From the NCBI GenBank assembly GCA_048885925.1, contig JBHLLG010000011.1, positions 1,200 through 65,199 of the forward strand: DNA of 64,000 nucleotides, given 5' to 3'. Shown here piece by piece: positions 49,524-64,000 of this stretch; within the stretch, counting starts at the first letter, position 1, and each line of letters begins with the position of its first letter. The notes beneath the pieces are model-generated. The model did no database searches. It was given only the letters and a program-made list of their open reading frames with translations, and was not told the DNA's origin. The position numbers were made by a program, and so were the translations under genes. The DNA is from Candidatus Hermodarchaeota archaeon. Lineage in GTDB: Archaea > Asgardarchaeota > Lokiarchaeia > Sigyniarchaeales > SOKP01.

Positions 49524-50510
49524 TTATTTTTCAAGAAGTTCCTTTGCAATTTCGAATGCATAATTATAATCAAATACTTTCAAACCCTTTGTATTAGCAG
49601 CTTCTTTTAAAATTTGACTTTCTGAATCTGCTTTTAAACGTCCTAGAGCCAATGCTCCGATTCCAAAAATTCCTGGATAAATTTCATCATTCTTATGTTT
49701 GGGTTTAATACCATCAATACCATAAGGTGGAACCAAATTAATATCTACAACAATTTTCTTGCCATTTAATTTTTTCATTAATTCTTCATTTAAAATCTCA
49801 ACACCCGCTGCAGCTAATGACCATATAATCTCAGCATTCTTTACGACATTAAATCTCTCTTCTAATTTAGGAGCAAAAACACCCTTAATTTTTATTGTTT
49901 GATCCCCTATCTCTTCATTAAGTTCTGTTACTAGTTGTTTAATGAAATATTCATTAGATTTGTCCCAAGTTTCTACTAAATAAGTATTACACCCAATTCT
50001 AGCTGCTAAAATTGCCGCTATTTGCCCCACTGGACCTGCACCGAAAATTACAACTTTCTTATCTTTTAAATCATTAAAGCCATGCTTCTTTTTAGCTATA
50101 TCTATTGTCATAGCGACTACAGCAGAAGCAGTAGTATGAGATCCTCTTGGATCAATTATCACAGGACATTCAAAAGGAGGAACCAACGACTTTATAACAG
50201 CCTTAGCTATTTTTTCTCCTTCTTTAACATCTGAACCTCCAATAAAAAAAGTAGTAGGCGCATTTGGTTTACGTGAAAAAATTGCATCTTGTACCAATTT
50301 AGGTACATTCTCTGCTCTCATCTTACTTATTGGTATGACAATATCAAATCCTGAATCATATGCCATATTTATATCAAATGGTGAAGCATTGTCATCTGTA
50401 TCAAAGAAATAACAAATCTTATCTGAAGTATCTTTCTTTTTAATAATGATAGGGGTCAATTCTATTATCGATTTCTTTCCAAGAATGCTTTCAACCTCTC
50501 TTTCTACCAT
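49524..50510 (-). CDS. MtdA/MtdB-like NAD(P)-dependent methylene-tetrahydromethanopterin/tetrahydrofolate dehydrogenase
   Basis: YFFDTDDNASPFDINMAYDSG..., ...FFIGGSDVKEGEKIAKAVIKS..PPF...IDPRGSHTTASAVVA..., Rossmann VVIFGAGPVGQIAA, and the tail FGIGALALGRLK are collinear with the methylotroph MtdA/MtdB family as I recall it. Confidence 0.65.
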   Translation of the reverse strand: MVEREVESILGKKSIIELTPIIIKKKDTSDKICYFFDTDDNASPFDINMAYDSGFDIVIPISKMRAENVPKLVQDAIFSRKPNAPTTFFIGGSDVKEGEKIAKAVIKSLVPPFECPVIIDPRGSHTTASAVVAMTIDIAKKKHGFNDLKDKKVVIFGAGPVGQIAAILAARIGCNTYLVETWDKSNEYFIKQLVTELNEEIGDQTIKIKGVFAPKLEERFNVVKNAEIIWSLAAAGVEILNEELMKKLNGKKIVVDINLVPPYGIDGIKPKHKNDEIYPGIFGIGALALGRLKADSESQILKEAANTKGLKVFDYNYAFEIAKELLEK

Positions 50511-50551
50511 AATATCAACTCCTATTTTTATAAATTTAATAAAAAAAAATA

Positions 50552-51280
50552 TTAAGAAAGATCAACTTCTAACTCTTTTTCAAAAACTTGCTCAACTGAT
50601 TCTGTTTTAATAGTTCTTTCTATTCTCACTTGTTCGATTTCAATCCCTAATTCTTCTGAAAGTTTCCCAAGTCCAATAAAATGTCGTGGATCACATATAA
50701 ACATACCAATAATTTTATTCCCTTCTATTTCTCTTGCAACATTTAATATTTTCATCATCATCCAAGCTTCTCTAACTTTATATCTTATTTCATCTTCTTG
50801 AGAATCATAGTCTTGTTTTAAATATTCTTTCCATAATACAATTCTCTGAAAAATGTCATCATTTTCAGGAATATTTTGTTTAGTTTTCATAATTTCATTT
50901 ATTCTTCGCTCAAGGTTTTTAATATGGATTCTATGCTCATCTAACGTGGAAGAGAGATATAATTCCGCATTCTCTGAAATATCTGCATAATCAAAAGGAA
51001 TTTTTCGATTTTTAAATAACAATCTAAGCGGTTCATTTGAATTCATGTCATTTTTCCACATATTTGGCCTCTCTTCTAAAGCAAATTTAGGTTTGTATTT
51101 TTCAAGGAGTACATCAATCAATTGAAGATATTCCTTAGAAATTAAATGAAGATTCCAAAAAAGATCTTCTTTTAAATTTTTAGGAATTTCAAACCACCAA
51201 TCGATAGGAAATTCACTCTCTACTAATACCAATTTTAAACTTTTATTTTTTAAAGGTTTTAATTCTAAAACTTCAGGCAT
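50552..51280 (-). CDS. Hypothetical protein, tandem paralogue of 51306..51923
   Basis: The N-terminus MPEVLELKPLKNK is shared with its neighbour (MEVLELKPIENKK). REAWMMMKILNVAREIEGNKIIGMFICDPRHFIGLGKL is weakly TraB/GumN-like. Confidence 0.45.
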   Translation of the reverse strand: MPEVLELKPLKNKSLKLVLVESEFPIDWWFEIPKNLKEDLFWNLHLISKEYLQLIDVLLEKYKPKFALEERPNMWKNDMNSNEPLRLLFKNRKIPFDYADISENAELYLSSTLDEHRIHIKNLERRINEIMKTKQNIPENDDIFQRIVLWKEYLKQDYDSQEDEIRYKVREAWMMMKILNVAREIEGNKIIGMFICDPRHFIGLGKLSEELGIEIEQVRIERTIKTESVEQVFEKELEVDLS

Positions 51281-51305
51281 TTAATATCCCCTCTTTTTAT
51301 TTTTT

Positions 51306-51923
51306 TTATAATATTATTTTTTGTATAGTATGTTTTTTATTATAAGAGATTACTTTTACACCTATTTCTCTTAAATTTTCAACAATTTGTAGACATATAT
51401 CTTCACATATATCTTCTTGAACAAAATGGACAAAAAAAATGGTATCTTTTTTAAATGAGCATGCTATATCCAACATTTTCTTGACGATCCATTGAGGTCT
51501 TAACTTTAAACTAAGAAATATCTCCTTTTCTTGAATTTCTTCACCTAACATATCGATCCAATTTTTTAAACTTTGCCCTTTATAAGATTCTTTATTCTCC
51601 ATCATTTCATATTCTTCAAACAATTCATTTTGAAACTCTTGTTTTTCAATTATCTCTTGATATAAATATCCCATTGCATAATCAGGAATATCTACTTGAA
51701 AATAGGGAATCTTAAGTTCATTCAAGGCTAGAGCAAAAGTAGTTTTACTAAATTCTTTCATATCAACTTGAAAATCAACTGTAACAAAATCAATATTGTT
51801 TCTTTTCAAAAATTCAACTAATTTTGAATGATCTACATTCTGAAAATATCTAGCATTTTCTTTAGAAGATACATATACAACAATTTTTTTATTTTCTATT
51901 GGTTTTAATTCTAATACTTCCAT
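51306..51923 (-). CDS. Hypothetical protein, tandem paralogue of 50552..51280
   Basis: 205 aa with the shared N-terminal motif. ...LRPQWIVKKMLDIA...IFFVHFVQEDICEDICLQ is comparable to its neighbour's C-terminal region. Confidence 0.45.
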   Translation of the reverse strand: MEVLELKPIENKKIVVYVSSKENARYFQNVDHSKLVEFLKRNNIDFVTVDFQVDMKEFSKTTFALALNELKIPYFQVDIPDYAMGYLYQEIIEKQEFQNELFEEYEMMENKESYKGQSLKNWIDMLGEEIQEKEIFLSLKLRPQWIVKKMLDIACSFKKDTIFFVHFVQEDICEDICLQIVENLREIGVKVISYNKKHTIQKIIL

Positions 51924-52033
51924 TTTTAATATCCACCTTCAGAATCAATTCTTTATCAACTAAATTTATTGAATTTATAAAATGATTCATTTATTTTTCA
52001 TATACAACTCTAAGAAGCGTTGTATTTACTCTA

Positions 52034-52128
52034 ATTAAATGATGATTTGAAAAAGATTTAAATAATTTGATAAGAATAATTTTAATCGATTTGACAATAA
52101 AATTTATCAAATTTCTTTTTTGTCAAAT
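52034..52128. promoter_or_regulatory. Conserved intergenic element, copy A, with TTGACAA-type inverted repeats
   Basis: 52034-52110 aligns without gaps to 61194-61270, 61 of 77 positions identical by my count, including the exact 14-mer tgataagaataatt. It contains ttgacaataaaatttatcaa, plus a 9-bp perfect inverted repeat atttgacaa (52089-97) / ttgtcaaat (52120-28). Confidence 0.45.
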
Positions 52129-52658
52129 TTTTTATTCAAGGCTAAAATTAGATTGTTTTATTTTCCCATGATTTTATAAAAAATCATACTATCTTAATTT
52201 GAATATTATTTTTATCATGAAATTAGAAAAAATTAAATTTTTTTATAATATAAGAGAAGTAACATTGGAATGTTTGGTCTTATACTATATATCGTGTGAT
52301 ATATTTATTTTGTTGTTAATATTATTAGATAATATGATTGATTTATATGTATAAATCTATTGAAATTGAATAAAATGATCATTTCCATCTAGTCTAAGTA
52401 GTTTTTCCCAATTACAGGTTTTTGGATCCTTAAAATAAAAGTTAAAGTTTTTATATTTTGACTACCATTTTAATCATGATGATAATTAAAATTCAAAAAA
52501 AACAAATAATTCATTGATAATCAAGATTGTTCATGTTCTATAAAGTTTAATCTGAAGATATATATTCTGCTTTACTCATCCAATTATTTCCAATTTAAAG
52601 CTTTATCGTGAATGTAAAGAAAGTAATTTTTAAAATTGAAATTATAATTATTTAAAAG

Positions 52659-52841
52659 TTGGAGGGAAAAAAAACATTGGTTGAAAAGAAAAAGGAAAAA
52701 GAGTTTTGTCCTATTTGTGGGTTCATTATAGAAGAAAACGATTATATTTATAGACATAAAGGACCTAGTGGGTATAAATGTTCTAACTGTGGATTTTTTG
52801 AGTTAATAGTCGAGAATCAATATTCAATACATCACTATTGA
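52659..52841 (+). CDS. Small zinc-ribbon protein
   Basis: CPICGFIIEEN...YKCSNCG. The start is uncertain: TTG at 52659 overlaps a GGAGGG Shine-Dalgarno-like run, and TTG at 52677 is an alternative. Confidence 0.4.
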   Translation: MEGKKTLVEKKKEKEFCPICGFIIEENDYIYRHKGPSGYKCSNCGFFELIVENQYSIHHY

Positions 52842-52851
52842 TGAAATAAAC

Positions 52852-54057
52852 TTGTTAATCTCAGAATTATCATGTAAAAATATTGGAAATTTTATTAATC
52901 AATGTTATAGTTGTAATCGTTGTGTCAATGTATGCCCCTTATCTCATTTAGGACTTTTTTTTCCAAGGCATTTAATTTCAGATTTAATATTCTCAGGATT
53001 AGAACAGGTTATAACAAATAATAATATTTGGAATTGCCTTACTTGTGGACAATGTTCAATCTACTGTCCTATGACTCAAGAAGCTAAGGGTGTCAATATA
53101 CCTGAATTAATTTTAGAGTTAAGAAAAATTTCTCTTAAAAATAATTCCGAATTAGAAAAGATAGTAAAATGTGAAACTCATAATGATATTTTTACTTTAA
53201 TTTCAAAAATTATGGCAAACAATCCTTTACATCCTGACAAATTAGGATTTCTAAAAACAAAAGGATTAAAAACTTCAAAATCAGGTGAAATTGCTTACTT
53301 TATTGGATGCCTGCCTTTAATGGATGATCTTTTTTATAAATTTGATTTCAATTATACTGACATTCCTTCAACAATAATAAGTTTACTTAATGAAAATGGT
53401 ATTGCACCAGTAGTTTTGAATGAAAAATGTTGTGGACATGATGTTTTTTGGGGCAGGGGTGATATTGAAACGTTTACCAAACTTGCCAATTATAATGTTC
53501 AGCTTTATAAAGACGCTGGAGTAAAAACTATTATTGTTAGTTGTGCTGAAGGATTTAAAACATGGAAATTTGATTATCCTAAAATAATAGATGATTTTGA
53601 TTTTAAAGTATTGCATTTTACAGAATTTTTTCTCAATAAAAAAATTCTTGAAAATGTTAAATTTCCTTACAATTTTAAAATTAAGGTAACTTATCACGAT
53701 TCTTGTCGAATAGGACGTTTAGGAGGAAAATTGTATAATCCTCCAAGAGACTTATTAAAACAGATTCCAGGTGTAGAATTGATTGAAATGGAGTATATTA
53801 AAGATGATGCTAATTGTTGTGGTGTTTCAGCATTTGCAAATTGTAATGAGGCTACACGCTTTCTACGGCAAAATCGTATTAATGAAGCACTTAATACCGG
53901 AGCAGATTACTTAATTGTTCCTTGTCCTAAATGTCTTACACATTTCAATTGTTACATAAATGAAATTTCTTTAAATGAAGAGAATAATGAGCATAGAAAT
54001 AAATTTAAAGTAATTGATTTAGCAAGTTTTATTGGAAAACTGCTAATGTTTGTTTAG
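52852..54057 (+). CDS. HdrD-like protein (HdrC-type 2x[4Fe-4S] + two HdrB-type CCG domains)
   Basis: CYSCNRCVNVCP and CLTCGQCSIYCP are followed by two CCG motifs (EKCCGHD, ANCCGVS) and CPKC. TTG start. Confidence 0.75.
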   Translation: MLISELSCKNIGNFINQCYSCNRCVNVCPLSHLGLFFPRHLISDLIFSGLEQVITNNNIWNCLTCGQCSIYCPMTQEAKGVNIPELILELRKISLKNNSELEKIVKCETHNDIFTLISKIMANNPLHPDKLGFLKTKGLKTSKSGEIAYFIGCLPLMDDLFYKFDFNYTDIPSTIISLLNENGIAPVVLNEKCCGHDVFWGRGDIETFTKLANYNVQLYKDAGVKTIIVSCAEGFKTWKFDYPKIIDDFDFKVLHFTEFFLNKKILENVKFPYNFKIKVTYHDSCRIGRLGGKLYNPPRDLLKQIPGVELIEMEYIKDDANCCGVSAFANCNEATRFLRQNRINEALNTGADYLIVPCPKCLTHFNCYINEISLNEENNEHRNKFKVIDLASFIGKLLMFV

Positions 54058-54114
54058 GTTAAAATAACAAGATTGGAATAAAAATTCAATAAATTTATTT
54101 AATAGCTGTGTTGT

Positions 54115-57100
54115 ATGTTAAATTTGCAGAGTAATGTTTTGGTCATTGGAGGAGGAATCTCAGGGATACAGGCATCTCTAGATCTAACCAAGTTAGGTTT
54201 TAGAGTATATTTAGTCGAAATTCAACCAACAATAGGAGGTACAATGGCCCAATTGGATAAAATATATCCCACCCTAGATTGTAGTTTATGCATCCTTGCG
54301 CCAAAAATGGTTGATGTGTATAGAGATCCAAATATAGAATTATTTACTTATTCTTATGTTAAAAAAATTACTGGAAATGCTGGGAATTATACAATTACGG
54401 TTATAAAAAAGCCAAGATATATAAAAGAAGAGATTTGTAAAGGATGTGGTGATTGTGGAACCGTTTGTCCAGTTAGAGGAATCCCTAGCGAATTCGATAC
54501 CAATTTAAAAACTCGAGGAGCTATTTATATTCCTTTTCCGTCATCAGTACCTCCAATATATATTATCGATGATTCAAAATGTTTATATTTAAATTATCAG
54601 ATATGCGGGCTTTGTGCTAAAGTTTGTACTGCAGATGCTATAGATTTTTTACAAAAATCAGAAGAAATTACATTAAATGTAGGAGCAATCATTATTGCTA
54701 CAGGAAATAATCAGGAAATGCCAGAAAAATATACCAATTTTGCTGGTTCCTCTCCTAATGTCTTATCTAATATGCAATTTGAACGTCTTCTTTCTGCGAA
54801 TGGGCCTACTGGAGGTCAAATCATAAGATTAGATGACAAAAAACATCCTAAATCAATTGGTTTTATACAGTGCGTGGGTTCTCGAGATTTTCATCATCTT
54901 GAATGCAAAAAATATTGTTCTGCAATTTGTTGTATGAATTCGGCAAAGGAAGCAATTGTTGTGAAGGAACATAATCCAAATATTGAATGTTATATTTTTA
55001 ATACAGAAATCAGAGCAAAAGGTAAAAATTTTTATGAGTTTATTGAAAAAAGTAAGAATGAATATAATGTTAAATATATAAATGGACATGTTTCATATAT
55101 TAAAGAGAATTTAGATAATGGAAAATTAAGATTATATTATGAAGATATTGATAAAGGAAAAGTTGGAACTTTTGAAGTAGATATGGCTGTTTTAGCAAGT
55201 GCATTATCTCCGACCCCTTCGTATTATGAACTTTTAAAACAACTTAATGTAGATTGTGACGATTTAGGATATATTCGTGAGGAAGACCTCATTTTACTTG
55301 AAAAAAAGAATGTATTTGTTTCAGGTTATTCTAAAAAACCTAATGATATCCAAATGGCTGTTGCAGAGGGTTCTGCATGTGCAGCAAAAATTAGTGAAAG
55401 ATTTTATCCTTTCAGATTTCAAAATATTAAAAAGGTAGAATATCCCCCAGAAATAACAGTAAGGTTAGAGGATGACCCGCGTGTTGGTATTTTAGTTTGT
55501 CAATGTGGTATCAATATTGGAGGAATTGTTAATGTTTCTGAAGTCGTAGACTATGTTTCTAAATTGCCCTATGTAGTACATGTCGAAGAAAATATGTATT
55601 CATGTAGTTCAGATTCACAAGAACGGATTAAAGAATTAATCATTAAATATAATCTTAATAGATTTATAGTTGCATCTTGTACCCCTCGAACACATGAACA
55701 ACTTTTTAAAAATACTCTCAGAGAGGTTGGATTAAATCCATTTTTATTTGAACTAGTAAATATAAGAAACCAAGATTCTTGGGTTCATCAAAACGAACCT
55801 AAAAAGGCAACTAAAAAAGCCTGTGATTTAATTAGAATGTATTTAGCAAAGGTGATTAACCTAAAACCATTAGAAACCATTAAAGTTAAAGTTAAACAGT
55901 CAACTCTAATAATTGGTGGAGGCATATCAGGAATTACTGCCGCACATAATTTAGGAAATCAAGGGTTTGAGGTTTATCTTTTGGATAAGAGATCTATTCT
56001 TGGAGGCAGCGCACTTGAATTTATAGATTTATACTATATACCTATTACTAAAAATGAAATTTTACAGCAAATTAATGATTTAAAGAATAATTCTAATGTT
56101 CATATTTTATTAAACTCTGAAATTGTTGATGTTCAAGGTTATGTTGGAAATTATCATGTTAAAGTTAAAAATATACAAGAGAATTCAAAAGAACAAATCC
56201 TCAATGTAGGTACAATAATAGTAGCAACAGGAACAAAGCAAATAAAGACAGTTAAATGGAAAGAATTATCAGAACGATATCCCAAACGTGTCCTTACTCA
56301 AACAGAACTTACTGCAATAAATGATGTAGATATTCCTGAGTTTAAGGATGCTACAATAATATTATGCGTAGATCAAAGGAGAGATGTATTTAATGACGCA
56401 GAATACATAAAAACTTATTGTTCAAATATTTGTTGTGGAGTTGCATTAAAAAATGTTGAAAAACTATTAAATATCAATCCTAATGCCCAAATTCACATTT
56501 TATATAGAGAATTTCAATTTACAGATTTAAACGCTGAAAATCTATGTCGAGGGCTTCGGAAGAAAGCAATATATGAAAGATATCACTCTATTAATGATAT
56601 CAAAATCAGTGATGAAAAAGATCACTTCCATATTATATATAAAAATATAAGCGCTCAAACAGATATAGAGTATAATACAGATTTATTAATATTAGCTACT
56701 CCTAACGTTCCTTTTGATGATACTAAAAAATTAGCTAAATTATTAAAGGTATCCACAAATAAAGATGGATTTTTCTTAGAAGCAGATGCAAAGCTTAGAC
56801 CAATAGATTTTGCCACTGAAGGTATATTTCTATGTGGAGGAGCTCATTGGCCAAAATGGATTGGAGAAAGTATAATTCAAGCTTATGGTGCTGCCGGAAG
56901 AGCAACAATAATTATGGCTAAAGGAGAAATAGAAACTGAATCTATAACTTCCTATATAGACGAGGAAAGATGTATCGGTTGTGGTAAATGTATTGAGATT
57001 TGCCCATATAATGCTATTGAATTGATAGAAAGTCGTAAAAAAATGGGTTTATACAATATAAGTTTAAGAAAGTCACGTATAATTAAGGCTCTTTGTAAGG

Positions 57101-57228
57101 GTTGCGGAGCTTGTGTTGCAGAGTGTTCAGTTGGAGCTATTGATCAGAATCACTTCAGTAAATTTCAAATTAGCAAAATGATCGACTTATTAACTGATAT
57201 TGATATAGTAGATTATGAAATTATTTAA
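54115..57228 (+). CDS. hdrA: Tandem HdrA-HdrA fusion protein (1037 aa)
   Basis: Two FAD dinucleotide motifs (VLVIGGGISGIQASLDL, LIIGGGISGITAAHNL). Module 1 has YPTLDCSLCILAPKM and an inserted ferredoxin (CKGCGDCGTVCP). Module 2 begins with the HdrA N-domain (GILVCQCGINIGG...IVASCTPRTHE...NIRNQDSWVH) and ends with a 2x[4Fe-4S] domain (CIGCGKCIEICP, CKGCGACVAECS). Confidence 0.85.
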   Translation: MLNLQSNVLVIGGGISGIQASLDLTKLGFRVYLVEIQPTIGGTMAQLDKIYPTLDCSLCILAPKMVDVYRDPNIELFTYSYVKKITGNAGNYTITVIKKPRYIKEEICKGCGDCGTVCPVRGIPSEFDTNLKTRGAIYIPFPSSVPPIYIIDDSKCLYLNYQICGLCAKVCTADAIDFLQKSEEITLNVGAIIIATGNNQEMPEKYTNFAGSSPNVLSNMQFERLLSANGPTGGQIIRLDDKKHPKSIGFIQCVGSRDFHHLECKKYCSAICCMNSAKEAIVVKEHNPNIECYIFNTEIRAKGKNFYEFIEKSKNEYNVKYINGHVSYIKENLDNGKLRLYYEDIDKGKVGTFEVDMAVLASALSPTPSYYELLKQLNVDCDDLGYIREEDLILLEKKNVFVSGYSKKPNDIQMAVAEGSACAAKISERFYPFRFQNIKKVEYPPEITVRLEDDPRVGILVCQCGINIGGIVNVSEVVDYVSKLPYVVHVEENMYSCSSDSQERIKELIIKYNLNRFIVASCTPRTHEQLFKNTLREVGLNPFLFELVNIRNQDSWVHQNEPKKATKKACDLIRMYLAKVINLKPLETIKVKVKQSTLIIGGGISGITAAHNLGNQGFEVYLLDKRSILGGSALEFIDLYYIPITKNEILQQINDLKNNSNVHILLNSEIVDVQGYVGNYHVKVKNIQENSKEQILNVGTIIVATGTKQIKTVKWKELSERYPKRVLTQTELTAINDVDIPEFKDATIILCVDQRRDVFNDAEYIKTYCSNICCGVALKNVEKLLNINPNAQIHILYREFQFTDLNAENLCRGLRKKAIYERYHSINDIKISDEKDHFHIIYKNISAQTDIEYNTDLLILATPNVPFDDTKKLAKLLKVSTNKDGFFLEADAKLRPIDFATEGIFLCGGAHWPKWIGESIIQAYGAAGRATIIMAKGEIETESITSYIDEERCIGCGKCIEICPYNAIELIESRKKMGLYNISLRKSRIIKALCKGCGACVAECSVGAIDQNHFSKFQISKMIDLLTDIDIVDYEII

Positions 57229-57240
57229 TTTGGGGGATTT

Positions 57241-57720
57241 ATGCTGATAAAAATTAAAAAAGTAAGAAATAATGAATTTGAGCCTAAGATACTTGTTTTT
57301 TGTTGTAATTGGTGTAGTTACGCTGGTGCAGACTTAGCAGGAGTCTCGAGATTCCAATATCCCCCAAACATTAGGATTATTAGGGTAATGTGTTCTAGCA
57401 GGGTTGAACCAATATTTGTTCTACGAGCCTTTAATAATGGAATAGATGGAGTATTAATTATTGGATGTCACATGGGAGATTGCCATTATATGAAAGGATT
57501 TGAATATACTCAAGATAGAATGGATCATTTAAAGAAGTTAATAAAATGTATTGGGATTGAAGCAGATCGATTTCAATTGCACTCCATTTCTGCAAGTGAA
57601 GGAAAACAATTTTCAGAATTAATTAAAGAATTCACAGAAAGAATTACAGGATTAGGAGAATTAAAAATTCCTAAAAAATCAGGAATAATTGAATTAGAAT
57701 CTAATTATAAAACAAATTAA
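57241..57720 (+). CDS. mvhD: MvhD-type (F420-non-reducing hydrogenase delta subunit-like) [2Fe-2S] protein
   Basis: ILVFCCNWCSYAGADLAG...IRIIRVMCSSRVEP...GIDGVLIIGCHMGDCHY is the canonical MvhD/FlpD pattern. All positions are Cys, with no TGA. Confidence 0.85.
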   Translation: MLIKIKKVRNNEFEPKILVFCCNWCSYAGADLAGVSRFQYPPNIRIIRVMCSSRVEPIFVLRAFNNGIDGVLIIGCHMGDCHYMKGFEYTQDRMDHLKKLIKCIGIEADRFQLHSISASEGKQFSELIKEFTERITGLGELKIPKKSGIIELESNYKTN

Positions 57721-57734
57721 AAAGAGGAATTAAA

Positions 57735-58850
57735 ATGACTGAATTAGGGTTTCAGAAACTTGAGCAAAGCAACGTAAAAAATTTTCAGGATCTTCAGAAC
57801 GAAATAATTAAAACTAATAAATGTTGTGCATGTGGAGCTTGCATAGCATATTGCGAGAGTCAAAGTTTTGATGTTATTGAGATGAACGGCTACATTCCTG
57901 AGTTTAAATCAGAAAAAAGTGTTAATAATTGTACTAAATGTGGTGTCTGTTATTATATTTGCCCTCAAACTAATATATTATTAAAAGAATTAAATGATAC
58001 TTATTGTATTGAAGATAAAATTGGGCATATTTCCAAAATTTTTGCTGCTAAAACAACAGACTTAGCATTAGAAAAAGTTGGACAGGATGGAGGTGTTGTT
58101 TCGGCAATTCTAACATTTTTATTTGAAAAACATAAAATTGATGCAGCAATTGTTTCAGAATATAATGCCAACTTTGAACCTGTCCCAAAAATTATATTTG
58201 ATAAAGAAGATTTATTCAAATCAGCAGGTACACGTTATTCTATTTCTCCTCAAATATTCCCTTTAAAAAACTTATATACCATACCGCAAGAGATTCTTAT
58301 GAAAAAGGAAATATTTGATATTGACCAGCTAAGAATTGCATTTATAGGAACTCCTTGCCAATGTAGAGCAGTTAGTAAAATGAAGTTTTTATTCGTGAAA
58401 CCAGCTCATGTCATTAAGTATATTATAGGTCTTTTCTGTTATGAGAATTTTATTTATTCTCAACTATATGATATTTTACAAAGAGAAACAAAAGTTGATC
58501 CTACTAATATCAAGAAAACTTGGATAAAGAAGAATTTCTTTATTCAAACTAAGGATAATAAAGAATTTGAAATTAATATCAAAACTTTAAATGCTGCAGT
58601 TAGAAATAATTGCCTTGAATGTGATGAATTCACAGGAAGATTTACAGATATTAGTATTGGAGCATCTGGAGCTCCAGAAGGATATTCTATGATCCTAATT
58701 AGAACTGATAATGGAGAGAAAGTGATAAATAATATGCTTTCAAAAGGAATACTTGAACAATTTATTGTTCCATTTAACAAAACTATTGAGTGGAAAAATA
58801 AGAAATTAGATTGGTTTAATAAATTAATTTCTTTAAAAAACAAGCAGTAG
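57735..58850 (+). CDS. FrhB/FdhB/FpoF-family flavoprotein with N-terminal 2x[4Fe-4S]
   Basis: CCACGACIAYCE and CTKCGVCYYICPQ, then GQDGGVVSAIL...IAFIGTPCQCRAV...GLFCYENF...CLECDEFTGRFTDISIG (FrhB_FdhB N and C domains). Confidence 0.8.
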   Translation: MTELGFQKLEQSNVKNFQDLQNEIIKTNKCCACGACIAYCESQSFDVIEMNGYIPEFKSEKSVNNCTKCGVCYYICPQTNILLKELNDTYCIEDKIGHISKIFAAKTTDLALEKVGQDGGVVSAILTFLFEKHKIDAAIVSEYNANFEPVPKIIFDKEDLFKSAGTRYSISPQIFPLKNLYTIPQEILMKKEIFDIDQLRIAFIGTPCQCRAVSKMKFLFVKPAHVIKYIIGLFCYENFIYSQLYDILQRETKVDPTNIKKTWIKKNFFIQTKDNKEFEINIKTLNAAVRNNCLECDEFTGRFTDISIGASGAPEGYSMILIRTDNGEKVINNMLSKGILEQFIVPFNKTIEWKNKKLDWFNKLISLKNKQ

Positions 58851-58987
58851 AATCTTTATTAACAAATATTTTTAACTTTAATAAAAATAACCAATCTTTT
58901 AATCACTTCAAATTAATTTGAACTGAAGATATAAATTCATATCAATTATTATTCTATATTTTTCTGAAAACCCATACGATGGGTTAG

Positions 58988-59022
58988 TCTCCTCTCAACT
59001 AATATTTTTTTGAGAAGATCAT
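58988..59022 (-). promoter_or_regulatory. Candidate SECIS element (AUGA-helix-GA, k-turn-like) in the 3' UTR of the Sec-HdrA gene
   Basis: Minus-strand RNA 11 nt after the stop: AUGA(59022-19)-UCUUCUCA(59018-11)-AAAAAAUAUUAGU-UGAGAGGA(58997-90)-GA(58989-88). The arms form 8 pairs (7 Watson-Crick plus 1 G.U) and the apical loop is A-rich. Confidence 0.45.
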
Positions 59023-59033
59023 TCCTTTCCAGA

Positions 59034-61070
59034 TTAAGTGTGATAAGGAGCTAATGCTTCAATCTTTTTCCAAATAAGTTCAATAGATTCAATATATTCT
59101 TCCTTATATTCAAGTTCAGTATTACAAATGCCTTTTATCTCTTCAACAATTTGTTTATCTCTATAATATTTAAGATCAATTGCCCTAGCTGGACAGGATG
59201 ATACACAAACACCACATCCTTTGCATTTCAATTCATCTATTTCTGCAATTTTATCTCCATTAACCATTACAGCCTTGTAATTACATAATTTTTCACATCT
59301 ATGACAACCAATACATAGATTTTCATTTATTTCAGCAATTATTAATTCTTGAACGATTGCATCTTTTGATAGTAATGTAGATGTTTTACTCGCTGCAGCT
59401 AATGCTGTTGATACCGAGTATGGGATATTTTTTGGGCCAGCAGCACACCCACAAATATAAATTCCCATATTATTAGTTTCTTGAGGTTTTAGACATCCAT
59501 GAACTTCAGATAAAAATCCATTAATATCTTTACTTAAACCTAATGTCTCAATTAATTTTGTTGTATTCTTAGAAGGGATCATGCCCGTTGATAATACAAC
59601 AAGATCTGTATTCATTGTTATCATATCATTTGTTAAGGTTGAAGAAGCTGTAATTTTGAGGTTTTTTGTTATTGAATCTTCTCGTATATCACCAACTTTT
59701 CCTCGAATCATCATAATCCCTGCTTCTCTCACTTTTCTATAATATTCTTCATTCCCTTTATCCCATGTACGCATATCTATATAAAAAATGGCAATATTAA
59801 TATCAGGATATTCTTGTTTTAACAGTTGAGCATTCTTAAGAGCAACATTACAACATACTCCTGAACAATAAGGATTTCCTTTTAAAGATCTCGAACCAAC
59901 ACATTGAATCATAGCTACTGTTTCTGGGATTCTTCCATCAGAAATTCTATAGACATGACCCCCTGTTGGTCCAACTGGACTTAACATGCGCTCTAATTCT
60001 ATTTGAGTAATTACATCTGGATAAATTCCATATTTATAATCATTATTTTTCATAATTGGATATTCATCCCATCCTGTGGCAAGAATTACAGCACCAACTC
60101 TTATATCAATAAATTCTGGCACCTGTTCAAAATCAATAGCTTCTGCTTGACACAATTTTTGACAATTTTTGCATTCTATGCACACATTCTTATCAATTAT
60201 CGCAACTTTAGGTACAGCTTGAGGAAATGGTATATAGATTGCACTACGTTCACCAATACCACGATTGAATTCATTAGGTACTGTTATAGGACATTTTGTG
60301 GTACATAATCCGCATCCTGTACACTTTTTTTCGTTAACATAACGTGGATTTTTTTGTATTCTAACATTATATTTCCCAGGAATACCACTAAATCCAATAA
60401 TTTCACTATAAGTCAGAAGGGTTATATTTGGGTGTTTTGAAGCATTTACCATTATAGGGGCTAAAACTCATATAGCACAATCGTCAGTGGGATAAATTCT
60501 ATCTAATTGTGCCATTTTTCCACCAATAGTTCCTTCTTTTTCGATTAGAAAAACTCTCACTCCCTGATTTGCTAAATCTAATGCAGCATTCATCCCAGCA
60601 ATTCCAGCACCTATTATTAATACTGATTTCTCCACTGAAATTTTTTTATACGGAACAATCTCTAATTCTCGAGCACGATTGATACCTGCTTGTACTAATC
60701 TTATAGCTTTTTCAGTTGTATCTTTTTTATTATTTGAAGATATAAATGAGCAATGTTCACGAAAATTTACCATTTGAAAATAATATGGATTTAATCCTGC
60801 TTCAGCTAAAACTGCTCGATAAGTAGACTCATGAATTTTTGGTGTACAAGCAGCTACAACTACTCGGTTTAAATCTAAATCCAAAATATCGTTCTTGATA
60901 AGATTTTGCCCTGGATCACTGCAAGTAAAATCATTTGCTCTAGCTATAATGATATTTGGGAGTGCTTCAACATAATCTCTAATAAGGTCACAATCAATAC
61001 TGGCTCCTATATTAACTCCTCATCTGCAAATATACACTCCGATTCTTGCAATGGTCTGTTTTTCAGACAT
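59034..61070 (-). CDS. hdrA: Heterodisulfide reductase subunit A homologue, predicted selenoprotein with two in-frame UGA (Sec) codons
   Basis: Three collinear same-frame pieces: ATG 61070...ICR-TGA(61022-20)-GVNIGAS..., ORF 60468..60884 ending ...IYPTDDCAI-TGA(60470-68), then VLAPI + ORF 59034..60452. The TGAs align with Cys of VCQCGINIGG and of DCSLCILAPKM in the neighbouring HdrA (54115..57228). The full HdrA domain order is restored (678 codons). Confidence 0.85.
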
Positions 61071-61193
61071 CTAATTCACCCTTCCAAACCTCACCAAATA
61101 TTATTCTATAATAATATCTCAAGATTTTGTTTTGAGAAAAAAAACTAAATTTACATAAATGTAAGTATAATTATTTTATTGTACTTTATCCCG

Positions 61194-61270
61194 ATTAAAT
61201 AATGAATTAGAAGAGATTTAAAAAATCTGATAAGAATAATTATAGTCATTTTGACAAATGAATTTGTCAT
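61194..61270. promoter_or_regulatory. Conserved intergenic element, copy B, with a perfect palindrome
   Basis: Gap-free match to 52034-52110. It contains TGACAAAT-GA-ATTTGTCA (61252-61269). A related site, ttgacaatcatatttatca, lies at 61418-61436, 75 nt upstream of the ATG at 61511. Confidence 0.45.
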
Positions 61271-61510
61271 TATTATATAAAATGTATTGATTTGGTCTTT
61301 GATTTGATCTTAATCCAATATAGTGTTTACCTTTTTCTTTGTATTGTGCAAATTATCGATAGTGACAATTATGTTTTATGGGAAAACTTTTAGTCAAGAT
61401 GATCATATTTATATAGTTTGACAATCATATTTATCATAGAGATCATAAAAATTATTAAAATAGTCATAATAAATTTTATGATTATAAAATTAATTTAGTG
61501 ATTTTTCATA

Positions 61511-62644
61511 ATGAGGATAAAGACTTTTAAAGATTTAATTGAAGAAGTTCATAAACCAGGTATTTGTCAAGAATGTGGGGGTTGTGTTAGTTTTTGTAAT
61601 TCAATTAAATATGATGCAATTGGGTTTAAAAAGCCTAATTCACCTCCGGAGTACTTAAATGAAGATAAATGTCTTGAATGTGGAATTTGTTATTTTATAT
61701 GCCCACAGACACATATTTTAGATGAGGATTTAAATAAAACTTATAATTTTTCAGATAGTACAAAAATGCCTTTAGGATTTATAGATAGTATTTACTCTTG
61801 CCAATCTTTAGATGATGAATTTTTAAAATATGGAACAGACGGAGGTGTTGTGAACTCTATCATTAATTATTTAATAGAAAAAAATTTTATTGAAGGAGCA
61901 ATTGTAGCAAAAACAACATCACCTTTTAATAGGGAATCGATAATAGCTAGAAACAAAAAAGATTTAATTGGTGCTTCGGGTGTCAAATTAGATATAACTC
62001 CTCAGCTAGAAATTGTACAAAAGTTTCATACTTATACGAGTTCATTACCCAGTTTAAGGCATTATAAATTTAAAAAAATAGCATTAGTAGGCACACCTTG
62101 TCAGATTTATACGATTAGATGTATGCAAGAATTAGGTATTATTCCATCTGAGAATATCGAGATTTGTCTAGGATTATTTTGTTATGAGAATTTCTTTTTT
62201 GACAAAGAGAGGGTAGAGAAATTCGAAAAATACTTTAAGCTTAAGTTTAAAAATATTGAAAGGGTAAACATAAAGGAAAATTTAATTATCAACATAAAAA
62301 ATAAGAAAAATCCTCAAAAAACTATTCATATTCCATTTGAAAAATTAACTGATTATTCACGTCCAGCTTGTAGTGTTTGTAAAGATTTTACGAATATTTA
62401 CGCAGATATTTCATTTGGAGGATTAGGTTCACATGATAAATATACAACTGTAATCACACGCACTAAAAAAGGGGAGGAATTAATCAATAAAGCGCTGCGA
62501 GCAGGTGTAATTAAAAGATTTAGATTAGATAGCTCCAATTTAAAGGATTTAAAAGAAACATTAATACAATTTACTCAGTTGAAGTTAAAGCGAACAGAAG
62601 AAAATATGAGATATAAGATGATAACAGGGAAATCGTCATCATGA
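61511..62644 (+). CDS. FrhB/FdhB/FpoF-family flavoprotein with N-terminal 2x[4Fe-4S] (paralogue of 57735..58850)
   Basis: CQECGGCVSFCN and CLECGICYFICPQ, then GTDGGVVNSII...IALVGTPCQIYTI...GLFCYENFF...CSVCKDFTNIYADISFG. Confidence 0.8.
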   Translation: MRIKTFKDLIEEVHKPGICQECGGCVSFCNSIKYDAIGFKKPNSPPEYLNEDKCLECGICYFICPQTHILDEDLNKTYNFSDSTKMPLGFIDSIYSCQSLDDEFLKYGTDGGVVNSIINYLIEKNFIEGAIVAKTTSPFNRESIIARNKKDLIGASGVKLDITPQLEIVQKFHTYTSSLPSLRHYKFKKIALVGTPCQIYTIRCMQELGIIPSENIEICLGLFCYENFFFDKERVEKFEKYFKLKFKNIERVNIKENLIINIKNKKNPQKTIHIPFEKLTDYSRPACSVCKDFTNIYADISFGGLGSHDKYTTVITRTKKGEELINKALRAGVIKRFRLDSSNLKDLKETLIQFTQLKLKRTEENMRYKMITGKSSS

Positions 62645-62734
62645 TCTTCTATATTAAATAAAAAGTAATCATATTTAACTTAAATAGAATTTTAATCATT
62701 TTCTTAATATTTAAACTAGGGAGGGAGAAAATAA

Positions 62735-64000
62735 GTGGATATTTATTCAATATTATCTCATCCATTTAGAAGAAAAATCCTACTGCTTTTAGAAAAGGAG
62801 GGTTATATTCCTTATTCAGATTTAATGGAAAGACTTGGTTTAGATACAACTGGACAACTAAATTTTCATCTTAAAAAGATAGGTTCATTGATAGGTAAAG
62901 ACAAAAAATCGTATTATCTTACAGAAGATGGCAAACGAGTATTAAGAATTATTAGTTTGAACAAAAGAATTTTATCTGGAGAAGATATTGATGAATACTT
63001 AGAATCTAAGGGGAGTGAAATAAGCCGAATTGGAGTAATTATTTGTAATTGTAATACCGAAGTTTCAAGTGTAATTAATATCACTGCGTTAGAGAATTAT
63101 ATAAATAAATTGAGAATGGTAGTTTCAGTAAAAGTTTTTGATAATTTATGTCAAGAAAAAAATTTCAAAAAGATTATTAATTGGGTTAAAGATAATTTTT
63201 TAAATAAGATTGTAATAGCTGCTTGTTCCCCAAAAACGCACCAGCTTCTATTTGAACGAATCTTTGAAGATATTATTGACCGTGCAAATATTGAAATAGC
63301 AAACATTAGGGAGCAGTGTTGTTGGGTTCATCAAACTAAAACAAACAAAATAGATCCTTCACTTTCATTGGAAAAATCTAAATTATTAATTGAAGCTGCA
63401 GTTGAGCGCGTAAACATTCAAAAGAAAGTAAAAGTAAAAAGAGTTGAAGTAGAAAAGAGTTGTGCTATTTTAGGTGGAGGAATTGCAGGTATTACACTCG
63501 CATTAAATTTAGCTCGAACTGGCATTAAAGTTCATCTTATTGAGAAATCGCCTACATTAGGAGGTAAAGTAGCGAGATGGCATCGAATCCATCAAATGGG
63601 TGATTGTTCAATATGTTTTATTTCAGAATTAATCAGCGAATTAACAAATCAAAAAAATATAAAAATTTATACTAATACTGAAATTGAAAATGTATCAGGA
63701 GAAGTGGGCAATTTTACTCTTCGTTTAATTAAGAAACCTCGTTTTATTGATGTGAAAAAATGCACAGGATGTAAACAATGTATTGAAGTTTGTAGTATAC
63801 AAAAGCAAAATCAATTTGAATATGGTTTAACTAATCGAAAAATAATATATATCCCTTTTATTCATTCATATCCTTTCGCTCCTATAATTGATAAAGAAGA
63901 TATAAATAAATGTATTAGTTGTAGAATTTGTGAACGTGCATGCGCTAATAAAGCTATAGATTTAACTCAAAAAGATGAAAAGATTGAGATTAAGGTTGGT
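62735..64000 (+). CDS. ArsR-type winged-helix domain fused to an HdrA-like flavo-Fe-S protein (3'-partial; not in ORF track)
   Basis: GTG at 62735 sits 7 nt after GGGAGGGAG, and the frame is open for 422 codons to the window end. N-terminus: DIYSILSHPFRRKILLLLEKEGYIPYSDLMERLGLDTTGQLNFHLKKIGSLIGKDKKSYYLTEDGKRVLRII (wHTH). The HdrA N-domain follows (IGVIICNCNTEV...IAACSPKTHQ...NIREQCCWVHQ), then FAD motif CAILGGGIAGITLALNL, GDCSICF, and ferredoxin motifs CTGCKQCIEVC and CISCRICERAC. Confidence 0.8.
   Translation, partial: MDIYSILSHPFRRKILLLLEKEGYIPYSDLMERLGLDTTGQLNFHLKKIGSLIGKDKKSYYLTEDGKRVLRIISLNKRILSGEDIDEYLESKGSEISRIGVIICNCNTEVSSVINITALENYINKLRMVVSVKVFDNLCQEKNFKKIINWVKDNFLNKIVIAACSPKTHQLLFERIFEDIIDRANIEIANIREQCCWVHQTKTNKIDPSLSLEKSKLLIEAAVERVNIQKKVKVKRVEVEKSCAILGGGIAGITLALNLARTGIKVHLIEKSPTLGGKVARWHRIHQMGDCSICFISELISELTNQKNIKIYTNTEIENVSGEVGNFTLRLIKKPRFIDVKKCTGCKQCIEVCSIQKQNQFEYGLTNRKIIYIPFIHSYPFAPIIDKEDINKCISCRICERACANKAIDLTQKDEKIEIKVG

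Follow-up and report, generated by a model that had tools for sequence, protein, structure and literature searches.

A winged-helix domain fused to an HdrA-MvhD enzyme subunit in Asgard archaea, with a candidate operator in the promoter of its own operon

The stretch of DNA analysed here (the window) consists of 64,000 nucleotides (nt) of contig JBHLLG010000011.1 from the Asgard archaeon Candidatus Hermodarchaeota archaeon (assembly GCA_048885925.1). Its last gene starts with a GTG at position 62735 and encodes a winged helix-turn-helix (wHTH) domain that runs in the same frame into HdrA, a flavo-iron-sulfur protein. In the promoter of the operon to which this gene belongs there is a palindrome with a 7-6-7 layout, TTGACAA-N6-TTGTCAA, which is predicted to be an operator, and further copies are found in neighbouring promoters. 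The frame of the fusion gene is open for 422 codons, up to the end of the window, and it is because the gene runs off the window that it is absent from the open reading frame (ORF) listing. An original prediction, made from the letters alone, had placed the gene at this GTG behind a ribosome-binding site; both were found in place, and the translation is the peptide quoted there. The parts of the gene are as follows.

62718..62726, forward strand: Shine-Dalgarno-like sequence GGGAGGGAG, 8 nt 5' of GTG 62735, read from the sequence.
62735..62977, forward strand: ArsR-type wHTH, amino acids (aa) 1-81, from Pfam DUF7347, an AlphaFold2 (AF2) model, Foldseek and a PDB profile match.
62978..63025, forward strand: acidic variable linker SGEDIDEYLESKGSEIS, aa 82-97, from low model confidence, charge and indels between orthologues.
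63026..64000, forward strand: HdrA part, aa 98-422, incomplete because the window ends here, from NCBIfam HdrA2 and a fold match.

In Pfam, the wHTH family DUF7347 (PF24038) matches aa 2-73 of the window protein with E=1.1e-11 and 45.2 bits against a gathering cut-off of 27.6, so that the wHTH segment is detectable by profile; HTH_24 is marginally above its threshold (22.3 versus 21.9), and FAD/NAD Rossmann and Fer4 (4Fe-4S) domains follow. Positions 1-319 of the NCBIfam HdrA2 model align to aa 98-422 (E=2.8e-91), and since model position 1 falls on aa 98, HdrA begins straight after the wHTH and a short linker. The proposed wHTH-HdrA fusion is thus borne out by domain calls in one frame, and every HdrA motif that had been named is present in the protein, which holds the N-domain cysteines (CNC, C139, ACSPKTH, REQCC), the FAD motif GGGIAG, the GDCSIC motif and an inserted ferredoxin domain. 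The label of HdrA body was correct for the remainder of the protein but incomplete, as orthologues extend to around aa 849, adding a C-terminal ferredoxin domain and then MvhD, and the full-length protein is wHTH-HdrA-MvhD, like HdrA2. As an example, the full-length orthologue at locus L023 has DUF7347 at aa 2-71, HdrA2 model positions 1-768 at aa 98-841 and FlpD/MvhD at aa 725-841. DUF7347 scores above gathering in this orthologue and also in the full-length orthologues P0149, P0155 and P0152.

A protein search found DUF7347 together with HdrA in records labelled Promethearchaeota, Hermod-, Hel-, Hod-, Frey- and Lokiarchaeota. For a genome scan, one genome per species was searched with an alignment of the fusion-specific N-terminal 236 residues. 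Here, 55 loci matched from the start of the wHTH (residue 1, or residue 3 in two loci) through the HdrA N-domain, and below them came ordinary HdrAs that aligned only from about residue 95. The architecture is therefore present in about 55 species-level genomes, nearly all of them Asgard. The ORF is complete in 48 loci, uninterrupted and 830-851 aa long (mostly 846-851), and these 48 are independent assemblies from many studies, including two records titled chromosomes (L023, L053). An uninterrupted ORF of near-constant length in so many loci rules out the frameshift or assembly join between wHTH and HdrA that had been raised as a possible flaw, and the frame is continuous across all 55 related loci. 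Orthologues start at the residue equivalent to the window GTG (M/L/V-DIYSILSHP), with 0-27 open codons upstream. Three fusion contigs (L037, L039, L053) are filed under bacterial or Bathyarchaeota metagenome-assembled genomes (Nanopelagicaceae, Deferrimicrobium, Bathyarchaeota) and are probably mis-binned; L053, titled a chromosome, could be a case of transfer instead. At L049 and L079 the C-terminus of the gene is garbled, through either a pseudogene or an assembly error, and the context of L049 differs, with electron-transfer flavoprotein and acyl-CoA dehydrogenase genes. Public records name the fusion protein "hydrogenase iron-sulfur subunit" or "FAD-dependent oxidoreductase" and do not mention the wHTH.

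The wHTH consists of a1 (aa 3-7), a2 (10-22), a b strand (24-26), a3 (27-34), the recognition helix (39-52, with TGQLNFHLKKI), a wing (53-62) and a5 (64-81). The AF2 model of aa 1-97 has a predicted local distance difference test score (pLDDT) of 86 and shows the order a1-a2-b-a3-aR-wing-a5 as in ArsR. Foldseek neighbours of this model are YodB (2.0-2.4 Å), apo NolR (2.4 Å), the ArsR-like PH1061 (1ub9, 2.7 Å) and MarR/OhrR, the NolR-DNA complex is also among the structural matches (3.4 Å), and all of the closest solved folds are DNA-binding regulators. In a PDB sequence-profile search the best match is the putative ArsR 1y0u (E=1.4e-4), followed by MntR and PagR. Together with the structural neighbours, this places the predicted ArsR/SmtB-like winged helix in the ArsR/MarR superfamily. 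HTH_5 and HTH_20 do not match the window protein among the 25 Pfam families listed, and the divergent orthologues P0149 and P0155 pass HTH_20 (27.7 and 30.8 against a cut-off of 27). There is no metal or metalloid site of the kinds looked for (a CxC at the N-terminal side of a3, or a His/Asp/Glu cluster in a5), as aa 1-97 lack cysteine and have just the histidines H9 and H45. Lacking cysteine, the domain is not itself a thiol or metal sensor; it is ArsR-like in fold without being a metal sensor of that family.

The domain is basic, with an isoelectric point (pI) of 9.4, and residues T39, G40, L42, N43, F44, H45 and K48 as well as those of the wing are invariant in the orthologue alignment, except in a few divergent lineages. 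Mean pairwise identity is highest in the wHTH, at 0.72 compared with 0.64-0.69 for the other domains of the fusion. The linker that follows has a net charge of -2.7 and a pI of 4.5, varies by indels between orthologues, and has pLDDT below 50 at aa 85-94 in the AlphaFold model of a full-length member; in that model it behaves like a flexible tether. An exhaustive profile search with the wHTH found 1,696 related cluster representatives. Most of them are 90-450 aa long and carry the domain N-terminally, a layout typical of archaeal transcription factors; about 5 clusters are HdrA fusions, and one stand-alone relative carries the public annotation "ArsR-family regulator". A word-indexed search with the same profile found nothing beyond fragments of the fusion itself. 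One apparent stand-alone wHTH, P0128, was rejected, being the N-terminus of a fusion broken near a contig end.

In the rest of the protein, the full HdrA2 set of domains and ligands is present, with four N-domain cysteines, the FAD GxGxxG motif, the GDCSIC pair, two 2x[4Fe-4S] ferredoxin domains and a fused MvhD, and the Fe-S ligand cysteines of the N-domain, the GDCSIC pair, both ferredoxin domains and MvhD are 100% conserved in 48 orthologues. With all cofactor cysteines invariant, the enzyme part can be regarded as intact. The AlphaFold model of the full-length member (mean pLDDT 82) matches HdrA chains 5odc_A, 8rvu_A and 7bkb_A with a template modelling (TM) score of about 0.77 (0.77-0.78), E of about 1e-55 and 29-30% identity, and MvhD chain 5odc_D with TM 0.84. 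These alignments span the solved HdrA chains (643-664 aa) over practically their whole length and show no counterpart of the wHTH in them, nor does any paper reviewed describe one. The full-length orthologue does not reach the NCBIfam equivalog cut-offs (574.9 against 1100 for HdrA2; 423.8 against 1300 and 376.5 against 1400 for others), which makes it a homologue and not an equivalog of the methanogen enzymes.

Directly 3' of the fusion gene come the genes for the small (VhuG-like) and then the large (VhuA/ShyA-like) subunit of a [NiFe]-hydrogenase, each overlapping the preceding gene by a few bases (in L023 at coordinates 12540/12550 and 13295/13298), and the fusion gene is translationally coupled to them. 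They are found in all loci where the contig is long enough, and for the window locus they fall beyond the window end. Fusion-MvhG-MvhA is thus the universal core of the operon. Adjacent small and large subunit genes together with MvhD mark an Mvh-type (group 3) [NiFe]-hydrogenase module, putatively of subgroup 3c. HdrB and HdrC genes are absent from this core operon, and an HdrD-like CCG protein gene lies about 9 kb upstream of the fusion in the window lineage only.

The predicted operator is found in two promoter regions of the window, at the positions given here with position-weight matrix (PWM) scores where available.

61408..61437, forward strand: proximal element, a TATA-like box (tttatata) and then operator TTGACAATCATATTTATCAT (61418-61437), PWM 20.9 bits.
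61195..61270, forward strand: distal composite block GATTTAAAAAATCTGATAAGAATAATT...TTGACAAATGAATTTGTCAT, with operator 61251-61270, 25.4 bits.
52035..52110, forward strand: second composite block, with operator TTGACAATAAAATTTATCAA at 52091-52110, between the leftward gene unk205 and the rightward operon of zinc-ribbon, HdrD-like and double-HdrA genes.

The proximal operator sits 93 nt 5' of the ATG of the FrhB-like gene that opens the operon in the window lineage. The TTGACAA-type sites that had been pointed out near 52034 and 61194 are real and represent the starts of two copies of a promoter block of about 80 nt; the two copies are 79% identical, and each ends in TTGACAA-N6-TTrTCAw (52091, 61251). 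The core of the distal block, TGACAAAT/ATTTGTCA, is a perfect inverted repeat, and the block faces the leftward Sec-HdrA gene, whose transcription it probably drives. Weaker operator-like sites are found at 52199 and 52458. Spacing is conserved: the distal and proximal sites are 167 nt apart in the window and 166-169 nt apart in L002, L009, L010, L013 and L023, and site pairs orthologous to the second block are about 106 nt apart in L003, L005, L007, L008 and L054. From Loki-type loci to Jordarchaeia the layout is the same, with one or more proximal sites abutting a TATA-like box, often as two sites 21 nt apart, and across lineages the distal composite block lies about 150-170 nt upstream of the proximal site, beside the divergent gene.

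The palindrome is specific both to this cluster and to its spacer. When the 64-kb window was scanned with the PWM, sites of at least 14 bits were confined to the two promoter regions. The 55 fusion loci (879 kb) contain 94 sites at no more than 2 mismatches, compared with about 10 in shuffled sequence, and 90 of the 94 are upstream of the fusion gene; a single site was found in 22 non-fusion HdrA loci (316 kb). Site density is 15.2 per 100 kb in the cluster and 1.4 per 100 kb, about the level of chance, in the flanks of the same contigs. In 51 promoter regions (up to 400 nt, 77% AT) there are 55 sites against 0.37 +/- 0.62 (maximum 3) in 200 dinucleotide-preserving shuffles, and other spacers give 0-4 sites in these regions. 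Over whole loci, spacers other than 6 give 3-15 sites, except for spacer 3 with 32. When all spacers from 0 to 12 were allowed, TTGACAA...TTGTCAA was not enriched in the window (13 versus about 10 expected), so only the spacer-6 form is meaningful. A spacer-3 pseudo-palindrome, TTGATAATTTATGTCAA, is located at 63138-63154, within the part of the fusion ORF that encodes FDNLCQ. The spacer-3 excess is probably not due to an operator, as such a sequence belongs to these codons and the excess is gone in promoter-only scans; repeated occurrence of this piece of conserved coding sequence in the orthologues probably accounts for it.

The composite block is found once more past the 3' end of the Cdc48 gene of the cluster (L025, about 4780-4840, with an equivalent at "-5100" in L026-L028, L031, L032, L035, L042 and L055). 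It lies 5' of an 80-aa ORF and a class I/II aminotransferase gene, which are possible extra members of the regulon.

Which protein would bind the operator can be approached by comparison. No other DNA-binding domain was recognisable in the conserved cluster, where unk205, unk242 and a 60-aa zinc-ribbon ORF were negative against Pfam, NCBIfam and PDB profiles, and the restriction of the operator to the cluster is as expected for a pathway-specific regulator encoded there. Where the recognition helix reads TGQLNFH, an operator of at least 15.6 bits is present in 47 of 49 testable loci, including Jordarchaeia at 41% GC. In all four lineages with an altered helix (K41 in L049; I41/Q48 in L050; N41/Y44 in L053; L41/F42/Y44 in L056), the best operator scores are between -7 and 11, two of these at 42-43% GC, and the consensus operator is not found in these divergent fusion lineages, which have only TGACAA-like half-sites. 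There is also a stand-alone wHTH homologue of 93 aa, 41% identical and ending at the linker, whose gene is translationally coupled to an unk242-Mtd orthologue beside an Hdr cluster, so the wHTH is tied to the same gene set whether fused or not. From the operator in the fusion's own promoter and the covariation of helix and operator, we infer that the wHTH of the fusion binds this site.

The explanation that we favour, with moderate confidence, is that the protein is bifunctional, an enzyme subunit that also acts as repressor of the operon encoding it, and thus a trigger enzyme of the PutA or BirA type. It unites a catalytic and a DNA-binding domain in one chain, with a predicted operator in its own promoter, which is the architecture of trigger enzymes, a functional class and not a homology family. 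The HdrA-MvhD body would be the flavo-iron-sulfur subunit of an Mvh-type group 3 [NiFe]-hydrogenase/Hdr module and, together with MvhGA, would carry out H2-linked electron transfer through flavin and Fe-S clusters, probably with bifurcation. On its flexible acidic linker of about 16 residues, the wHTH would bind TTGACAA-N6-TTGTCAA as a dimer, the two copies being supplied by an HdrA homodimer or by pairing through helix a5. Archaeal repressors classically bind just downstream of TATA, and occupancy of the proximal operator, just past the TATA-like box, would block recruitment of RNA polymerase and give autorepression; both this sign of the regulation and a switch by redox or assembly state are what we infer beyond binding itself. 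The further operators would bring in the divergent promoter of the unk205, unk242 and Mtd-like genes and, in the window lineage, through the duplicated block, the HdrD-like/double-HdrA operon and Sec-HdrA. If PutA and BirA are a guide, DNA binding by the wHTH may be gated by the state of the enzyme (redox state of FAD and Fe-S clusters, or assembly with partners), and expression of the H2/Hdr module would then track cellular redox or H2 supply. In its strongest form, which we offer only tentatively, the bifurcating hydrogenase/Hdr complex would itself be the sensor, with the redox or assembly state of HdrA-MvhD switching the wHTH on and off its operators, so that H2 and ferredoxin status is read out as transcription of the Hdr/Mvh and unk205/unk242-Mtd genes.

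Several observations weigh against this explanation. Fifteen of the 51 promoter regions have no site at up to 2 mismatches, although most of them have PWM matches, and L039 and L040 have the consensus helix without a good site. The covariation depends on about four deep lineages that are also the most divergent genomes, and general divergence could explain it. The loci with stand-alone wHTHs (L080-83) have no consensus palindrome, only TGACAA-like half-sites. The site could belong to a regulator whose gene lies in another part of the genome, and a wHTH inside a large hydrogenase/Hdr complex might be unable to reach DNA. The redox switch, for its part, is pure conjecture, in a wHTH without cysteine.

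The alternative that survives best, which we regard as rather unlikely, is that the wHTH has become a structural adaptor that no longer binds DNA and docks HdrA-MvhD on a partner (FrhB-like, unk205/unk242-Mtd or another Hdr module), while the palindromes are bound by an unlinked regulator. The original prediction had likewise named tethering to a partner as an alternative, and this stays a serious competitor. Such use of a wHTH has a precedent that also counts against the trigger-enzyme explanation: in class II benzoyl-CoA reductase, the wHTH of BamF is a protein-protein interface, with BamI, on an MvhD-like adaptor (10.64898/2026.04.10.717634). The Hdr systems of Asgard archaea are modular and rich in fusions (PMC11237513), and the evidence for DNA binding by this wHTH is comparative. 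Against an adaptor stand the basic pI of the domain, its invariant putative recognition helix and wing, and its relatives, which are ordinary small wHTH proteins of transcription-factor layout, one of them annotated as ArsR-family. The disordered linker in the model likewise speaks against a domain packed on the enzyme body, and neither the confinement of the operator to a cluster without another recognisable transcription-factor domain nor the coincidence of helix changes with operator loss favours an adaptor.

It is less probable still that the protein is a dedicated one-component redox sensor, a transcription factor in which HdrA-MvhD serves as a non-catalytic FAD/Fe-S sensory module. This was the reading favoured in the original prediction, and part of it holds: the fusion, the ArsR/MarR-type wHTH and the local palindromes are all there. 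In favour of a sensor, DNA-binding and cofactor-binding domains share one chain as in one-component regulators, and an HdrA2 score of 575 bits, far under the equivalog cut-off of 1100, is not that of an orthodox methanogen HdrA2. The idea of a dedicated sensor is disfavoured by an enzyme subunit that has been kept intact, as conservation is complete for the residues that ligate about six Fe-S clusters, for the FAD motif and for the cysteines of MvhD, and the fold matches catalytic HdrA (TM about 0.77). The gene also overlaps that of the hydrogenase small subunit and, in the ancestral layout, provides the sole HdrA/MvhD partner for MvhGA, and a sensor of about 750 aa with many clusters would be very costly. 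With MvhD fused, the hydrogenase genes coupled and all cofactor cysteines kept, the protein most likely functions as an enzyme subunit and binds DNA in addition. Finally, an artefact in which a frameshift, an assembly join or a mis-called start has fused two genes might be suspected from a window that ends within the gene and from some truncated or garbled database entries (P0014/L049, P0128/L079), but it is refuted by the continuous ORF with the linker in frame in 48 independent assemblies, and its probability is negligible.

The wider neighbourhood differs between lineages. The ancestral upstream neighbours are divergent from the fusion operon and are, in transcription order, unk205, unk242, an Mtd-like (Mpt_N) gene and Cdc48. 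The window lineage has an inserted cassette that separates unk205 from the fusion gene, with the order zinc-ribbon ORF, HdrD-like, double HdrA, MvhD, FrhB-like, leftward Sec-HdrA and second FrhB-like. The duplication of the composite promoter block is consistent with this inserted cassette having carried or copied the ancestral promoter on the unk205 side. The genes are located as follows.

50552-51280, reverse strand: unk242.
51306-51923, reverse strand: unk205.
52659-52841, forward strand: zinc-ribbon ORF (CxxC...CxxC), 60 aa, with a strong ribosome-binding site, just 5' of the HdrD-like gene.
52852-54057: HdrD-like CCG protein, preceding the double HdrA.
54115-57228, forward strand: double HdrA, 1037 aa, two HdrA bodies per chain.
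57241-57720: MvhD as a separate gene, after the double HdrA.
57735-58850: first FrhB-like gene, after MvhD.
59034..61070, reverse strand: Sec-HdrA, 678 codons from ATG 61070, with two in-frame TGA codons.
61511..62644, forward strand: second FrhB-like gene, an Fe-S flavoprotein (Pfam FrhB_FdhB_N/C), first gene of the operon in the window lineage, 90 nt 5' of the fusion gene.

An FrhB-like gene is at the equivalent position in L002, L004, L010-L015, L019, L023 and L052, and the zinc-ribbon ORF is in the same place in more than 10 related loci (tblastn). The proteins unk205 and unk242 have no match in Pfam or the PDB, and orthologues are present in most loci. They are paralogues (both start with MEVLELKP; about 20% identity), they are always divergent from the fusion operon, and unk242 is fused to the Mtd-like protein (Mpt_N plus Rossmann) in basal lineages and in L080. 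They are probably co-regulated with the fusion operon and may be partners or acceptors of the hydrogenase/HdrA module. In Sec-HdrA, the TGA at 61020-61022 corresponds to U17 in GVYICRUGVNIG, replacing the second cysteine of the N-domain CxC, and the TGA at 60468-60470 corresponds to U201 in DDCAIUVLAP, replacing the second cysteine of the motif that is GDCSIC in the fusion. Both are probable selenocysteines (Sec); Rfam gave no match on 50000-64000, including no selenocysteine insertion sequence for Sec-HdrA. Sec-HdrA is known from Asgard archaea (PMC11227280), and selenocysteine at the N-domain position of HdrA may be less familiar.

Parts of this system have been described before. Asgard archaea are known to possess group 3c hydrogenase/Hdr modules and to express them highly (PMC11291895, PMC11216029), and HdrA-HdrA-MvhD fusions and Hdr modularity have already been noted (PMC11237513), but these three papers do not mention a DNA-binding domain. 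Full-text literature on DUF7347, and on HdrA with HTH, winged-helix, ArsR or DNA-binding domains, did not yield a description of the fusion, in agreement with the earlier impression that there is no characterised example. A wHTH on HdrA-MvhD with an operator in its own promoter in many Asgard archaea thus appears not to have been described previously. Fusions of enzyme and repressor are already known; what is new is that the enzyme is a bifurcating subunit of HdrA type belonging to a hydrogenase module, and that the fusion comes with a defined operator and an Asgard-wide distribution.

Models of Asgard physiology, and of the syntrophy underlying eukaryogenesis, give a central place to metabolism based on hydrogen and electron bifurcation, and to our knowledge almost nothing is known about the regulation of this metabolism in these archaea. 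The present analysis supplies a candidate regulator and a likely operator with exact coordinates and a PWM. The candidate regulon contains the Mvh/HdrA operon and the divergent unk205/unk242-Mtd-like genes, and in the window lineage also the double-HdrA and Sec-HdrA genes. Binding can be tested with the 97-residue domain and oligonucleotides of 20 bp, for which culture of the organism is unnecessary. If the favoured explanation is true, this would be the first trigger enzyme on an HdrA-type bifurcating flavoprotein, and if the complex is also the sensor, it would be a PutA-like trigger enzyme on a machine for flavin-based electron bifurcation, specific to the archaeal lineage closest to eukaryotes. 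Until the wHTH is included in the public names of the protein, there is a gap in annotation.

A close parallel in organisation is PutA (proline utilisation A) of E. coli and Salmonella. There, a ribbon-helix-helix is the N-terminal domain of a flavoenzyme. Both combine a redox flavoenzyme and a repressor of its own operon (putative for the Asgard fusion) in one chain with an N-terminal DNA-binding domain, and both have operators (predicted in the Asgard case) in a divergent promoter region. In PutA the cofactor state can gate DNA binding, whereas for the Asgard protein binding and switch are predictions; PutA also differs in using a ribbon-helix-helix and in being a membrane-associating dehydrogenase without Fe-S clusters or a hydrogenase partner. 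BirA (biotin ligase and repressor) and NadR are trigger enzymes as well. Like BirA, the fusion has an N-terminal winged helix on an enzyme and is predicted to bind as a dimer to a palindromic operator in the promoter of its own pathway, but BirA, a small soluble ligase, takes its own reaction intermediate as corepressor, and the Asgard fusion is a multi-cluster, probably electron-bifurcating subunit in a hydrogenase complex. In its enzyme part it resembles Methanosarcina HdrA2 and the HdrA of MvhAGD-HdrABC (5odc, 8rvu, 7bkb), with N-domain, FAD, inserted and C-terminal ferredoxin domains, fused MvhD and an Mvh-type hydrogenase nearby, and it differs from them in its wHTH, in a core operon without adjacent HdrBC genes and in NCBIfam scores below the equivalog cut-off.

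The wHTH itself is similar to ArsR/SmtB-type repressors (1y0u, NolR, PH1061, YodB), with the a1-a2-a3-aR-wing-a5 order, the "HPxRRKIL" and "xxHLKxL" positions and a palindromic target, putative in this case; unlike them, it has no metal- or thiol-sensing residues, its best Pfam family is DUF7347 and not HTH_5, and it is fused to an enzyme of about 750 aa. With BamF it shares attachment to an electron-bifurcation machine of the MvhD/HdrA type, and in contrast to BamF it sits at the N-terminus of HdrA, is basic, hangs on a disordered linker and comes with an operator to match. SurR of the Thermococcales and Rex are stand-alone wHTH redox regulators that work through a CxxC disulfide switch or NADH binding. 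Here as well, a winged helix and palindromic sites close to promoters are found at genes of hydrogen and redox metabolism, with regulation proposed for the Asgard fusion, but in the Asgard fusion the presumed sensor is the enzyme itself.

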